12,580 bases of DNA from Methanocella sp. (lineage in GTDB: Archaea > Thermoproteota > Bathyarchaeia > Bathyarchaeales > Bathycorpusculaceae), in contig JBLNCY010000041.1 of assembly GCA_050261115.1 (NCBI GenBank), positions 1-12,580 of the forward strand, given 5' to 3'. The position numbers were made by a program, and so were the translations under genes. Shown piece by piece: positions 1-4,372 of this stretch. The notes under the pieces were generated by a model, which saw only the letters and a list, made by a program, of their open reading frames with translations, had not been told where the DNA came from and did not search any database. Each line of letters begins with the position of its first letter. Within the stretch, counting starts at the first letter, position 1.

Positions 1-1265
1 GCAATCTCCGCTTCCGGAGCACCGCCGCCTGGAACGATTTTTCCATCCTCAACAGCGTTTCGCACAACACACAAGGCGTCACGCAGTGAACGTTCCGCTT
101 CACCAACGATGTGCTCAGCGCCGCCGCGGATGACAACCGTTACAGCTTTGGGGTTCTTGCATTCCCGCACATACACAAGTTTGTCGTCGCCGATCTTGGC
201 TTCTTCGACTGCTTTAGCAGAGCCTAACGCGTCGGCTGTGAGGTCTTTGATGCTGGCGACAATTTTTGCACCTGTCGCTCGACTTAGTTTTTCCATGTCG
301 CTGCTGCTTACACTTTTAACAGCAAGGATGCCTGCTTTTGCCAAAAAGTGCAGGGCCAAATCATCGATGCCTTTTTCACAGAACAAAACGTTTGCGCCTG
401 TGCTGCGTACTTGATCAACCATTTCTTTTAGCATGCGTTCCTCTTCGTCAAGAAACAGCTGCATCTGCTCAGGGCGCTCAATGTTGATTTTGGCATCGAA
501 CTCGGTCTTGTCAATCTCTAGTTTGGTGTTGAGCAGGGCGATTTTTGCATCGTGGATATCTTTGGGCATTTGGCTGCTGGCGACTTCTTTGTCAATCACC
601 ATGCCCCTGACTAGTTCGGTGTCTTCTAGGCTTTTGCCGTGTTTTTTGATGATTTTGATCAGGTCTATGTCAGCTTTGGGTTTGCCGTCACGTTCTTCGG
701 TGACTAGTTTTACTGCGTCAACGGCTAATCGGGCGAAGTGCTCTTTGGCTCCGGTGAGGCCTTTGCTTCCCATGGAAGTTAATGCAACATTGAGGAGCGC
801 TTTTTCGTCGTTTATGTTGACGGGTGTGGCCATGCTGTTGAGGACTTCTTGGGCTTTGTCGCTGGCTTTTTTGTAGCCGTCGATGATTACGGTTGGGTGG
901 ATGTTTTCGTCGATTAGGTTTTCTGCTTTGGATAAGAGTTCGCCTGCGAGGATTACGGATGTGGTTGTGCCGTCTCCGACTTCGTTGTCCTGTGTTTTGG
1001 CGACTTCAACAAGCATTTTGGCGGCTGGATGCTGTACGTCTAGTTCTTTTAGGATGGTTGCGCCGTCGTTGGTTATGGTGACGTCGCCTATGCTGCTGAC
1101 GAGCATTTTATCCATTCCGCGTGGTCCAAGGGTTGTTTTCACGGTTTCAGCCACAATCTTGGCTGCTTGTATATTGTTTTTTTGTGCGTCTTTTCCTGTT
1201 GTTCTTCCTGTTCCTTCTTTCAAAACTAATACAGGTATGTTTCCTTGTTGTGCTATTGCTGCCAT
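1..1265 (-). CDS. ths: Thermosome subunit (group II chaperonin), 3'-truncated by the window edge
   Basis: Manual translation from ATG at 1265: [55 protein letters not shown]...[23 protein letters not shown]...[10 protein letters not shown]...[23 protein letters not shown]...[11 protein letters not shown]. Has the [22 protein letters not shown] and GGGAPE signatures. Open for 421 codons to the edge. GGTGAT SD at 1271-1276. Absent from the ORF track. Subunit type (alpha/beta) not assignable. Confidence 0.98.
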
Positions 1266-1317
1266 GTTAAATCACCTTCGATCTTTAGCATAGCAGTTTT
1301 CCATTATTCTATATCCA

Positions 1318-1332
1318 AAATATAAGTCTTCT
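1318..1332 (-). promoter_or_regulatory. BRE + TATA box of the thermosome promoter
   Basis: Minus strand reads AGAAGAC-TTATATTT: purine-rich BRE then TATA box, about 53 nt upstream of the ATG. Near-identical to the regulator promoter at 2148-2162. Confidence 0.8.
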
Positions 1333-1370
1333 TGTTGACTAATTGTTGACATGTTTATTAATAATAAACA
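1333..1370. promoter_or_regulatory. Two abutting 19-bp palindromic operator-like boxes
   Basis: 1333-1351 TGTTGAC-TAATT-GTTGACA and 1352-1370 TGTTTAT-TAATA-ATAAACA (perfect 8-bp inverted arms), directly upstream of the BRE. Same pattern recurs at 2163-2181. Confidence 0.75.
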
Positions 1371-1427
1371 CAGGCGCAGTTGACTCTATGCAAGCACTAA
1401 ACACGCAAAATACAGAGGGGTCCATCG

Positions 1428-1703
1428 TTAAGTAGACTTTGTCTTTTCAGCCCTCAACTCGGCTAAAATAACGATAGCTTCTCCAAGCGGCAGCCCCAAC
1501 CGTCCAGCAAGCTCCACTGCAGAAATGTCTGGCTGCTGAGGCAAAATGTTGTCGCGTGTGTATGCTTTACGTGTTGGAAACATAACTGAAGCATGCACGA
1601 CTTCAAGGAGTAGCTGCCAAAGTTTCTCCTTAGAGTATTCCTCAAGGTTTACCTGAGTATTCAAGTTTATCTCCATCCCTGACGGGCAGCAGCTAACTTT
1701 CAT
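1428..1703 (-). CDS. Small hypothetical protein with C-terminal HTH-like segment
   Basis: 91-aa ORF (alternative ATG at 1676, 82 aa). ATG 1703 overlaps the upstream TGA (ATGA), suggesting translational coupling. PDISAVELAGRLGLPLGEAIVILAEL resembles a helix-turn-helix. Confidence 0.75.
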   Translation of the reverse strand: MKVSCCPSGMEINLNTQVNLEEYSKEKLWQLLLEVVHASVMFPTRKAYTRDNILPQQPDISAVELAGRLGLPLGEAIVILAELRAEKTKST

Positions 1704-2125
1704 CTTGAGACCAAGCCCAAGGTATGATCAATATTTTCAGATACGTCTATGATGTTCTCAAATAGTCGATTTATGTCTCTGTGGATTTCTTCAACGGTGC
1801 CTTTGAGGCTTTTTTCTCTGAGTTTAAATTTGCCGCCGTGGAAAATGACCAACCCGCTTTTCATCATCTTGTTGAGGTGGTGAATCATGGTTCCTCTGGT
1901 AAGGTTTAGTTTTTCTGCAAGCTCGTCACTTGTTAGCCCGTTGTTTTGTGCGGCAGATTCGAGTAGCGCCTTAAAAATTAGGTGTGCGGTTTTTTGTTTG
2001 TCTCTGGATTCGAGGAAACCAAAGGTTCGGCAGAACCATTCAAGATCTGGTATGTATTCTGCTGTTGAGGGTTTTCTTACTGATAAGAGGACATATTCGG
2101 CCAAGGCTTCTTCCTGTGAGGACAT
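1700..2125 (-). CDS. Winged-HTH (ArsR/TrmB-like) transcriptional regulator; candidate heat-shock regulator
   Basis: wHTH pattern GLTSDELAEKLNLTRGTMIHHLNKMMKSGLVIFHGGKFKLR followed by an amphipathic helix. Start moved from the track's TTG 2182 to ATG 2125 (MSSQEE..., 141 aa) because 2148-2181 is promoter/operator sequence. Confidence 0.9.
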   Translation of the reverse strand: MSSQEEALAEYVLLSVRKPSTAEYIPDLEWFCRTFGFLESRDKQKTAHLIFKALLESAAQNNGLTSDELAEKLNLTRGTMIHHLNKMMKSGLVIFHGGKFKLREKSLKGTVEEIHRDINRLFENIIDVSENIDHTLGLVSR

Positions 2126-2147
2126 GTGAATAACTTGGAAGCCTAAT

Positions 2148-2162
2148 AAATTTAAGTCTTCT
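2148..2162 (-). promoter_or_regulatory. BRE + TATA box of the regulator promoter (probably leaderless mRNA)
   Basis: Minus strand AGAAGAC-TTAAATTT ending 22 nt before ATG 2125, the spacing expected for a leaderless archaeal transcript. Confidence 0.8.
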
Positions 2163-2181
2163 TGTTGACAATTAATTAACA
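2163..2181. promoter_or_regulatory. 19-bp palindromic operator-like box
   Basis: TGTTGAC-AATTA-ATTAACA, at the same offset from BRE/TATA as the box at 1333-1351. Confidence 0.75.
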
Positions 2182-2261
2182 AGCAAACCTATTTGGATAA
2201 TGCTGCCTGGCTATACCCAAAGCTCTATTCAACTTAAAGAAATGGAGATATTGGGTTGAAC

Positions 2262-2483
2262 TTAGCTTACATGCAAACCCGTGACGTCTTTCCCGTGATA
2301 TTCACTATGCATCGTACGTAAGTGCTTTAGATGAACAGTGTGCAGGTGCTTTTCTGCTGCGTCTTTAATGTCAAAGGTTTTACCGCACTCTGGGCACAAG
2401 AATTCGCCGCTCTGCAATTGATTTATCGCAGTGCTATGCCCTTGAGTATGATTAGGCTCCTGAGAAACATTAGATGTGCTCAA
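2262..2483 (-). CDS. C2H2 zinc-finger microprotein with His-rich tail
   Basis: FLCPECGKTFDIKDAAEKHLHTVH fits F-x-C-x2-C-x3-F-x8-H-x4-H. TTG start overlaps the hsp20 TGA (TTGA at 2480-2483). Confidence 0.8.
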   Translation of the reverse strand: MSTSNVSQEPNHTQGHSTAINQLQSGEFLCPECGKTFDIKDAAEKHLHTVHLKHLRTMHSEYHGKDVTGLHVS

Positions 2484-3052
2484 ACGCTTTTCCCCTCCTC
2501 TATGGTGAGTTTCTTCTTCTCTTTGGGCTCCTTCTTGGGCAACGTGATCTCTAGGATACCGTTGCTTAGGCTTGCTTTGGCATCGTCTGAGCGTACCGGT
2601 TCAGGGAGCTGTATTTGCCTATAGAAAGCTTGGCTTGCTCTTTCACGTCGAACATAGTTCTTTTTCTTCTCTTCCTCACTTTGGGCCCTCTTTGCATGGA
2701 CGGTTAAGGAATCGTCGGTAACCTCGATCTCAACGTCTTCTTTCTTAAAGCCAGGCAAATCAACAGTCAAATGATAATCTTTGCCGCGATCCTCTAAGTC
2801 AACCGATGGCATCTTCATATCCTTGAAGGGCAGCATCGGAAATTCTCCTCTCCAAAGCCTATGTCCCCATCTAGTGGGTAGCTCCCAGAAATCCTCGAAC
2901 TCACGCTCAAACCTGTCCATCATGCGGTCAAAATCCCTTTGAATCTCCCTAAAAGAATAAGGAACCATTTCACCCTCATCGCGTTTTCTGATTTCGCTGG
3001 CTTTCTTCTCTTTACCTCCATAATAATACATACTCTTTTTTTCCTCAGCCAT
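2480..3052 (-). CDS. hsp20: Small heat-shock protein (Hsp20/alpha-crystallin family)
   Basis: PSVDLEDRGKDYHLTVDLPGFKKEDVEIEV...FYRQIQLPEPV...AKASLSNGILEITLPK plus C-terminal I/L-x-I motif (LTI). ATG 3052 is preferred over GTG 3064 because of the GGTGAT SD at 3057-3062. Confidence 0.97.
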   Translation of the reverse strand: MAEEKKSMYYYGGKEKKASEIRKRDEGEMVPYSFREIQRDFDRMMDRFEREFEDFWELPTRWGHRLWRGEFPMLPFKDMKMPSVDLEDRGKDYHLTVDLPGFKKEDVEIEVTDDSLTVHAKRAQSEEEKKKNYVRRERASQAFYRQIQLPEPVRSDDAKASLSNGILEITLPKKEPKEKKKLTIEEGKSV

Positions 3053-3186
3053 TTCTATCACCACTATTTTAAACGGATTTATTCGCCAAACCTGTCACGT
3101 AGTCGCCAATAGACTGACATGGAGTGAGCAACAAAGTTGAATGGCAACCAGCAACAGAAAAATCCTATATGATATGGTTGAATTCG

Positions 3187-3204
3187 TTTTTTAAAAAACC
3201 TTTC
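3187..3204 (-). promoter_or_regulatory. Candidate BRE/TATA for hsp20
   Basis: Minus strand GAAAGG-TTTTTTAAAAAA about 135 nt upstream of the ATG; implies a roughly 115-nt leader. Confidence 0.45.
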
Positions 3205-3284
3205 GCAATACAAAAGGACACCCACATACGGCCTGGCATTTACCGCGAGGTCACCTACAACACAATTGACGCAACAGAAAGTCT

Positions 3285-3290
3285 AAAAAA
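3285..3290 (-). terminator. Candidate oligo-T terminator after the trpD-like gene
   Basis: T6 run on the minus strand about 12 nt after the TAA at 3302-3304. Archaeal intrinsic terminators are oligo-T, but the signal is short. Confidence 0.35.
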
Positions 3291-3301
3291 TTGGTTTAAG
3301 G

Positions 3302-4363
3302 TTAGGCTTGTTCGCTAACCAAGTGATTTAGCTGCTCTAAAGCCTTACCCGAACATAACGCGTTACGTGCCTGCTCCATGCCATCTTTATACGAGGATGC
3401 GGCACCAGAAATGTACAGTGCAGCGGCTGCGTTCATGCAGAACAAATCCGCCAACGGATTGCTATAATCGCCTGAAAGCACTCGCCGTATCGCCGAAGCA
3501 TTGTCATAGGCTTTGCCAAAGGAAGCCACATCGAAAGCTGCATGTGTTTTTATCCCGAAATCTTCTGGCTGCACCGTGTATGTTTGGATTGTGCCGTCTT
3601 TTAGTTCGACCACTCTTGTGGGGCCACAGGGGGAAAACTCGTCGATCCCCAAAGCCGCATCAACGCCATTAACCATACCATAAGGTGAAACAGCACGTTT
3701 CATACCAATTTCTCTTAGGATTGCCACAAGCTGGTCGCATACGTGGGGTGCATAAGCGCCGATTACAATGCTGCTAGTGTTCTCGCAGGGCATAGTCAGG
3801 GGTCCCACGATGTTAAAAGCTGAGGTGAAACGCATAGATTGGATCAGCCGGGCCCAGCCTGATTTCAAAAAGGCTTCACCGGGCATGTAGCAGATGTTAT
3901 GTTTTTCTAGGCACTGTTTTGCTTTACTCATGGGGCTTGATAGGTTGACGCCGAGGATTTCATAGATTTCCGAAGCGCCAGATACCCCTGTTACCTTTTT
4001 TGCGCCCTTTTTTGCGATCGGTATCCCGCAAGCGGAAGCGATAAGTGCTGCTGGCGAGGATGCATTCACAGTTTTTAAGGCATCTGAGCCGGTTCCGACG
4101 ATGTCGCAGATGACGCCGTCTATGTTTGCTCGGAACTTTTCGGTATCAAACCTGTCCAGCGCATCCCAGGTGCCGGATAATTCCTCTGTGGTGGGTCCAC
4201 GCGTTATATGCGCCATCAGAAAGGCTCCTTGCTGAAGCTCAGGCTGCTCATTTAAGATGACTTGCCTGTAGGCTTCACAGGTTTCTTCTCGGGTTAGGGT
4301 TTTGCCGGCTGCTACTTTGCAGATTAGCTGGCCGAATTCTCGTAGTTTTTCTTCAGTTACCAT
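3302..4363 (-). CDS. Anthranilate phosphoribosyltransferase (TrpD)-like protein, glycosyltransferase family 3 fold, with divergent active site
   Basis: TrpD layout throughout: QQGAFLMA...TTEELSG, DIVGTGSD..KTVNASS, AFNIVGPL, GIDEFS, VQPEDFGI, MNAAAALYISG...SGKALEQL. The KHGN motif is replaced by KKGA. ATG 4363 follows GAGTGAT (track start GTG 4372). Symbol withheld because the function may not be TrpD. Confidence 0.9.
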   Translation of the reverse strand: MVTEEKLREFGQLICKVAAGKTLTREETCEAYRQVILNEQPELQQGAFLMAHITRGPTTEELSGTWDALDRFDTEKFRANIDGVICDIVGTGSDALKTVNASSPAALIASACGIPIAKKGAKKVTGVSGASEIYEILGVNLSSPMSKAKQCLEKHNICYMPGEAFLKSGWARLIQSMRFTSAFNIVGPLTMPCENTSSIVIGAYAPHVCDQLVAILREIGMKRAVSPYGMVNGVDAALGIDEFSPCGPTRVVELKDGTIQTYTVQPEDFGIKTHAAFDVASFGKAYDNASAIRRVLSGDYSNPLADLFCMNAAAALYISGAASSYKDGMEQARNALCSGKALEQLNHLVSEQA

Positions 4364-4372
4364 TGGTATCAC

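Follow-up and report, generated by a model that had tools for sequence, protein, structure and literature searches.

Which protein controls the thermosome gene of Bathyarchaeia, and through which DNA site, is the question raised by a 12,580 bp contig (C41; JBLNCY010000041.1, assembly GCA_050261115.1), the whole of which is referred to below as the window. Two promoters in this window, one in front of a thermosome gene and the other in front of a gene for a winged helix-turn-helix (wHTH) protein of 141 amino acids (aa), P0001, carry the same core promoter sequence together with an adjoining box. The boxes upstream of both promoters point to a so far undescribed archaeal stress regulator and to its candidate binding site. 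A thermosome gene of Bathyarchaeia, a lineage that is abundant and uncultured, can thus be tentatively paired with a concrete protein and a candidate DNA site. The source genome (G000) comprises 2.15 Mb (2,148,294 bp) in 66 contigs, and all genes of the region studied lie on the minus strand. The elements on which the argument turns are listed here (BRE, transcription factor B recognition element; ORF, open reading frame).

3..1265, minus strand: 5' part of the thermosome (group II chaperonin) gene, ATG 1265; Pfam Cpn60_TCP1, E 6.7e-149
1271..1278, minus strand: Shine-Dalgarno-like AAGGTGAT before the thermosome ATG; GGTGAT invariant in the 7-genome alignment
1289..1300, minus strand: conserved AAAACTGCTATG at the expected start-site distance from the TATA box 1318-1325, in 6 of 7 orthologous promoters
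1318..1325, minus strand: thermosome TATA box TTATATTT, invariant in 7 orthologues
1326..1333, minus strand: BRE-like AAGAAGAC abutting the thermosome TATA box, part of a 14-mer that occurs twice genome-wide
1333..1351, minus strand: box 1, TGTCAAC-AATTA-GTCAACA, with direct GTCAAC half-sites at 1334-1339 and 1345-1350
1352..1370, minus strand: box 3, TGTTTAT-TATTA-ATAAACA, counterpart of the GTTTAC-N7-GAAC of relatives
1428..1703, minus strand: ORF of 91 aa, its ATG overlapping the regulator stop codon (ATGA); no match in Pfam or NCBIfam
1700..2125, minus strand: gene of the winged-helix regulator P0001, 141 aa, ATG 2125; HTH_24 and HTH_5 above cut-off
2148..2155, minus strand: TATA-like TTAAATTT of the regulator gene, 22 nt before the ATG
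2156..2163, minus strand: BRE-like AAGAAGAC of the regulator gene
2163..2181, minus strand: box 2, TGTTAAT-TAATT-GTCAACA, with a conserved GTCAAC half-site at 2164-2169
2183..2198, minus strand: decayed half-site GTTTGC (TTTAC in relatives) and decayed ancestral TATA box CCAAATAGG (ATATTTAAGG in relatives), judged against the promoters of 36 relatives

An earlier note on this DNA had described 1318-1339 and 2148-2169 as identical at 21 of 22 positions, had placed three 19-bp boxes at the coordinates listed above, and had assigned one promoter to the thermosome (ATG 1265) and the other to the wHTH gene (ATG 2125); all of this holds. Over 34 nt (1318-1351 against 2148-2181) the identity is 82%. 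The 22-mer GTCAACAAGAAGACTTAWATTT (minus strand) has exactly two exact matches in the window, 1318-1339 and 2148-2169, and none of 200 shuffles gave any match, with up to 3 mismatches allowed. Its first 14 letters, GTCAACAAGAAGAC, are found in exactly two copies in the 2,148,294-bp genome, both of them at the window promoters. A chance origin of the twin repeat is excluded.

Read on the coding strand, both promoters have the form GTCAAC-AAGAAGAC-TTAWATTT. The other thermosome promoters of this genome and of its genus carry GAAAAAC-TTATAT without a box, from which it follows that AAGAAGAC-TTATATTT represents an ordinary BRE and TATA box; the match to these promoters bears out the proposal that both elements lie inside the repeat. 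Downstream of the thermosome TATA box, at start-site distance, a start-region motif AAAAYTGCTATG is conserved, and AAAACTGCTATG recurs at an unchanged distance from the TATA box in the box-less promoters of two other genomes, G075 and G097. We infer that thermosome transcription starts near the motif at 1289-1300. On the regulator side no Shine-Dalgarno sequence was found between the TATA box and the ATG at 2125, and this, together with the distance of only 22 nt from TATA box to ATG, suggests that the regulator mRNA is leaderless. In public gene calls the regulator begins at TTG 2182 and has 160 aa, a start that would place box 2 and the TATA box inside coding DNA; we took 2125 as the start because the orthologues, mostly of 141 aa, align from residue 1 at that ATG.

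The boxes had been presented as one shared palindrome, and this did not withstand inspection, as only five of the seven arm positions are complementary in box 1 and likewise in box 2. Box 1 contains TTGTTGAC twice, exactly and in direct orientation (TTGTTGAC-N3-TTGTTGAC, period 11 bp), and boxes 1 and 2 have only the TATA-proximal arm in common. The sole perfect 7-5-7 palindrome is box 3 (1352-1370), whose palindromy is not kept in relatives. The degenerate consensus TGTTNAY-W5-RTNRACA was dropped as evidence; it matches only the three boxes from which it derives and therefore has no independent weight. Judged by the arrangement of its arms, the geometry is that of an array of GTYRAC half-sites rather than of a single palindrome.

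Conservation was followed through the relatives of P0001, which were located at 239 places in contigs representing one genome per species; 80 loci were kept, 42 from Bathyarchaeia and 38 more distant ones of DPANN type. Beside the regulator, 34 of the 42 Bathyarchaeia loci carry a thermosome gene, which is divergent at a distance of 118-150 bp in 27 of them and lies downstream in the same orientation in seven; hsp20 occurs in 13 of the 42 and a gene of the proteasome assembly chaperone family (PAC2-like) in 14. Among 41 distinct regulator upstream regions from Bathyarchaeia, 36 follow the pattern TATA-TTTAC-N14-[GA]T[ACGT]AAC, usually continued by AAGAAGAC-TTAAAWTT; of the remaining five, one has N13 spacing and four, including that of G000, fall outside the pattern as searched. 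At divergent loci one half-site coincides with the thermosome BRE and the other stands against the BRE-like element on the regulator side, as read by eye. Relatives carry an additional upstream TATA box AAATATTTAAGG followed by TTTAC, both copies of which are decayed in G000; the upstream TATA box at the position of box 3 is likewise present in relatives and lost in G000. In the clade of G000 the thermosome copy of the element reads GTTTAC-N13-TGTCAAY-N5-GTCAAC-AAGAAGAC-TTATATTT, and its part TGTCAAY-N5-GTCAAC-AAGAAGAC-TTATATTT is the best-conserved block in an alignment of seven orthologous thermosome upstream regions. In these seven promoters box, BRE and TATA box are near-invariant and the flanks have diverged (mean column identity 62%), so that the conservation upstream of orthologues that had been proposed as a check is indeed found. 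In the closest relatives, loci L008-L010, a third box TGTCAAC-TATTA-GTCAAC-AAGAAGAC lies upstream of a trypsin-type protease gene (L010:3865-5066); this gene, whose 377-aa product combines a membrane anchor and a coiled coil with a Trypsin_2 domain, has the 91-aa ORF on one side and the thermosome gene on the other, a place where G000 has no such gene. The linkage of the family to thermosome, hsp20, PAC2-like, trypsin-type protease and grpE-dnaK genes marks it as chaperone-associated.

The distribution of boxes and regulator was compared across a sample of 81 genomes from the genus. Four of them, G000, G027, G080 and G083 (the last with two copies), hold the regulator, and a thermosome at least 89% identical to that of the window is present in five: G000, G027, G083 (twice), G075 and G097. 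G000 has three thermosome paralogues besides the one in the window. Of five regulator-free genomes, four have a best thermosome match of 74-76% identity and the fifth, G104, one of 58%; the 74-76% identical proteins are counterparts of the C8 paralogue of G000 and have plain promoters, with boxes in none of the four. This distribution indicates that the thermosome of the window is an accessory paralogue, which by these gene counts is inherited with the regulator. Searching with the family profile detected no regulator in G075 (99% complete) and G097 (97% complete), even though their thermosome is 89-90% identical. In the thermosome promoters of these two genomes the TATA position is preserved, as are start-region motif and leader, and both the GTCAAC box and AAGAAGAC are absent. 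Boxes are thus present in 7/7 regulator-linked orthologous thermosome promoters and in 0/2 regulator-free ones, counts which come from few and related genomes. Searches of the 81 genomes for the 14-mer with one mismatch gave counts at the level of the reversed control, and six regulator-free genomes have one exact match each, that of G104 lying inside an argininosuccinate synthase gene (translation read by eye). Genome G083 carries the whole cassette of regulator, 91-aa ORF, protease and thermosome twice, as L009 on contig 3 and L010 on contig 1, with regulators 91-92% identical to P0001; given the 7% contamination of this genome, two strains in one bin are possible.

The extent of the regulon was addressed with a 14-mer matrix built from the regulator promoters of 36 relatives, with G000 left out (maximum score 22.6). 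This matrix ranks the two window sites first in the G000 genome, with 22.0, and the next site scores 17.7; the next-best sites lie in coding DNA or before a phosphoglycerate mutase and an acetyltransferase gene. As no further promoter scores well, the regulon in G000 seems to consist of two promoters and not to be a broad heat-shock regulon. Elsewhere in the genome, an intergenic near-palindrome CCTTGAC-TTTTA-GTCAACA was noticed at C11:2710-2728, about 130 bp before an ORF of 221 aa whose N-terminus resembles, by eye, another winged-helix regulator; this site may be an unrelated operator of similar shape.

The 38 distant loci encode proteins 35-46% identical to P0001 and are labelled Woesearchaeota, Nanoarchaeota, Pacearchaeota or 'Methanosarcinales'. 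When 87 of their 126 flanking ORFs were scanned against Pfam, grpE was found among the nearest upstream ORFs in 23 of the 38 loci, with dnaK behind it in five and hsp20 in front in two. The palindrome TGTTGAC-N5-GTCAACA (up to 2 mismatches) is present in 22 of the 38, and its hexamer is identical to that of the G000 boxes, of which boxes 1 and 2 each match the palindrome at 12 of 14 positions. In these distant members it is flanked by the grpE start on one side and by two TATA boxes in inverted arrangement on the other, a location that is a repressor position. The 'uncultured Methanosarcinales archaeon' label of locus L051 and of other loci looks doubtful; L051 (genome G061, 1.3 Mb) has a regulator, grpE and palindrome like those of the Woesearchaeota loci. 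At L056 a run of N at about 2890-3000, upstream of the regulator, makes the operator unreadable.

The proposal that the wHTH protein acts on the box and thereby controls itself and the chaperonin is supported by comparison, namely by conservation, linkage and co-variation, and we consider it quite probable that the regulator and its operator form a real pair. Our best explanation, to which we give a probability of about 0.5, is that P0001 is a wHTH repressor dedicated to chaperones, which would act on GTYRAC arrays at its own promoter and at that of the accessory thermosome and would be released by stress. P0001 would recognize arrays of GTYRAC half-sites (GTCAAC in G000) directly upstream of the BRE and TATA box, its targets being its own promoter and the promoter of the thermosome paralogue inherited together with it. 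Under normal conditions a dimer or higher oligomer would sit on the boxes, cover the BRE and exclude transcription factor B (TFB) and the TATA-binding protein (TBP) from both promoters. Heat or unfolded-protein stress would release P0001, so that the thermosome paralogue and the regulator would be induced, the latter then resetting the system. Binding, the sign of regulation and the stress signal are what we infer here from the comparison of sequences. A repressor appears somewhat more likely because the array abuts the BRE in G000, because the element lies downstream of a TATA box in most relatives, and because it covers the grpE start region in distant members.

Several observations weigh against this explanation. 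The regulator promoter of G000 is itself off the family pattern, with TTTGC, a half-site spacing of N13 against the N14 of relatives, and a decayed upstream TATA box. Hits at other chaperone and protease promoters had been predicted, but in G000 none of 11 such upstream regions has a box (three other thermosome paralogues, three trypsin-type proteases, three hsp20 and two PAC2-like genes; best matrix scores at most 5.9). Eight sites in G000 match TGTTGAC-N5-GTCAACA with up to 2 mismatches, against about seven expected by chance by our own arithmetic, so that what sets the two boxes apart is their position alone. Among the Bathyarchaeia loci, eight of the 42 have no thermosome gene in the available DNA. 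Parts of the thermosome, regulator and hsp20/zinc-finger genes are represented in contigs from three RNA runs; these contigs reveal no start, strand or level and are uninformative. Finally, the boxes of G000 lie upstream of the BRE, a position that is also typical of archaeal activators.

This last point leads to the reading in which P0001 is an activator, which we regard as possible though less likely than a repressor. Bound to the array at about -38 to -75, it would recruit TFB and TBP to both promoters, with positive autoregulation, and it might repress where the site lies downstream of the TATA box, as at the distant grpE genes. Archaeal activators with sites upstream of the BRE include Ptr2, SurR and TrmBL1, and dual-function archaeal factors exist whose sign is set by the position of the site. 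In the G000 clade the boxes are wholly upstream of the BRE and TATA box, and the box-less promoters of regulator-free genomes have a different BRE, CGAAAAA, as would fit a promoter that no longer needs help. However, the nearest half-site ends 8 bp from the TATA box, against the BRE, which favors occlusion; in most relatives the element lies between the upstream TATA box and the regulator start, and in distant members between the grpE TATA box and the grpE start, both of which are repressor positions.

It is improbable that the boxes are bound by another factor, be it the product of the co-transcribed 91-aa ORF or a variant of a general factor, with the wHTH gene merely linked or its product binding elsewhere. 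The overlap of the 91-aa ORF with the regulator stop codon would suit such a partner, but within the loci compared this ORF is confined to G000 and its closest relatives L008-L010 and the element is found across Bathyarchaeia. The boxes moreover co-vary with the winged-helix gene in the regulator-linked and regulator-free promoters counted above, and the identical hexamer accompanies the family in distant lineages. It is very improbable that the twin promoters stem from recent copying of a core promoter, by duplication or gene conversion, and have no operator function, for although part of the common 22-mer is a plain BRE and TATA box as in other promoters of the genus, its GTCAAC part is kept among species whose regulators are only 75-92% identical, is absent from ordinary thermosome promoters (0/4), and is lost where the regulator is lost.

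P0001 belongs to the ArsR/MarR-type winged helix-turn-helix proteins, the Pfam gathering cut-offs being exceeded for HTH_24 (PF13412; 35.3 against 21.9 bits) and HTH_5 (PF01022; 29.5 against 22 bits). Its AlphaFold model (mean predicted local distance difference test score, pLDDT, 90.2) consists of an N-terminal helix, the winged helix and a C-terminal helix of 30 residues. A Foldseek search with this model returned generic MarR/ArsR matches, none of them at E 0.001 or better, and with VIA-align the longest matches, at Z of about 9, included ST1889 (2D1H), TrmBL2, a regulator of M. mazei and AbfR2. Among 8,000 candidates scored, no fewer than 3,672 clusters reached E 0.001 or better, all generically named. 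Homologue names were uninformative, being generic or, in Atlas, those of unnamed HTH clusters, and no description of the family was found in the literature searched (coverage partial); papers on the archaeal DnaK system that were checked make no mention of a regulator, of HrcA or of a helix-turn-helix. By its sequence matches P0001 is a member of a large, unnamed archaeal family.

The nearest protein of known structure, both by family profile (E 1.8e-6) and by full-length fold (Z 9.3, 95 residues aligned), is ST1889 of Sulfolobus tokodaii (2D1H). ST1889 and Lrs14/Sta1 resemble P0001 in combining a small winged helix with a C-terminal helix; unlike them, P0001 and its family have a conserved N-terminal part of 45 residues and are linked to chaperone genes. 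P0001 also stays below the NCBIfam cut-offs for Sta1 (NF053606; 24.5 against 80 bits) and Lrs14 (NF040939; 21.9 against 90 bits).

Phr and HSR1 are, according to two reviews of 2022 and 2023, the only characterized archaeal heat-shock regulators, and heat-shock regulation outside Euryarchaeota is given there as unknown (PMC9133787, PMC10653856); a further paper assigns both proteins to arCOG01684 (PMC5852551). Like P0001 they are archaeal winged-helix (ArsR-type) factors tied to heat-shock genes, and both are autoregulated. Their sites, as given in PMC9133787, are TTTA/TGGTAA/AAAA over the start site for Phr and CTAAC-N5-GTTAG for HSR1, and thus differ from the GTCAAC arrays of the window and from the TGTTGAC-N5-GTCAACA of distant members; the HSR1 site has only its geometry, an N5-spaced palindrome, in common with the latter. 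As reviewed, the Phr/HSR1 regulons include hsp20 and an AAA+ ATPase and exclude the thermosome (PMC10653856), whereas here the boxes stand at the thermosome and regulator genes and none is found upstream of the window hsp20 (best 14-mer matrix score -2.0). Phr of Pyrococcus furiosus (PDB 2P4W) gave no sequence match at E up to 10, either with P0001 or with profiles A1 and A2. VIA-align of P0001 against 2P4W gave Z 8.0 over 75 residues (root-mean-square deviation 2.9) at rank 34, tied with many winged helices; the match is confined to the winged helix, 2P4W was not among the Foldseek matches listed, and its chain has 198 residues against the 141 of P0001. No sequence link to Phr was thus detected, and the fold match is that of a generic winged helix.

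In outline the arrangement resembles HrcA/CIRCE of bacteria, where a dedicated factor acts and a conserved repeat precedes the chaperonin operon, the grpE-dnaK operon and the factor's own gene. Fold, site and the archaeal BRE/TATA promoter context all differ, and the 12 Pfam matches of P0001 (E up to 0.01) include no HrcA family. That HrcA has a pan-archaeal counterpart is a tentative idea, to which we give slightly less credence than doubt: one wHTH family with one half-site (GTTGAC/GTCAAC or GTTTAC/GTAAAC) would control whichever chaperone system is the main one in a lineage, in Bathyarchaeia the thermosome (with hsp20, PAC2-like and trypsin-type protease genes) and in DPANN Hsp70-GrpE, and in the genus of the window a cassette of regulator and stress thermosome paralogue would be gained and lost between species. 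The two groups differ in that the presumed target of the distant members is grpE and here the thermosome, with half-sites that are direct or widely spaced (TTTAC-N13/14-GTNAAC). The Bathyarchaeia regulator is in any case linked to the same protein family that stands beside Hsp70 operons of DPANN archaea. Should the idea of an HrcA counterpart be correct, P0001 would be without precedent both as a transcription factor assigned to a thermosome gene and as a heat-shock regulator from outside Euryarchaeota. Control of an archaeal chaperonin would be directly testable with a 141-aa protein and two DNA fragments of 60 bp.

Upstream of the regulator gene the region continues with the following genes.

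2262..2483, minus strand: ORF of 73 aa with a C2H2 zinc finger, from the ORF list, overlapping the hsp20 stop codon
2480..3052, minus strand: Hsp20 gene; Pfam HSP20, E 1.3e-25
3302..4372, minus strand: trpD, from the gene layout

At 3199-3217 (minus strand), directly 3' of trpD, there is a terminator-like hairpin with a T run behind it, which makes the AT-rich stretch upstream of hsp20 more likely to be the end of trpD than an hsp20 promoter. An Rfam scan of 1200-3300 gave no match, and a bacterial-type promoter scan was set aside as not applicable to archaea. The C-terminal part of the 91-aa ORF product resembles a helix-turn-helix by eye, and the protein might serve as a partner or as a further DNA-binding subunit. 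Parts of the window stretch are contained in 23 sequencing runs, and one contig from an RNA library, covering 2344-2907, spans the hsp20 and zinc-finger genes. The zinc-finger ORF has a 68% identical paralogue on contig C43. At the left end of the window, contig C21:3-374 is a 99% identical copy of thermosome residues 298-421 (window 1-374) and is followed by an hsp20-like gene; C21 is probably the continuation of the window in this direction.

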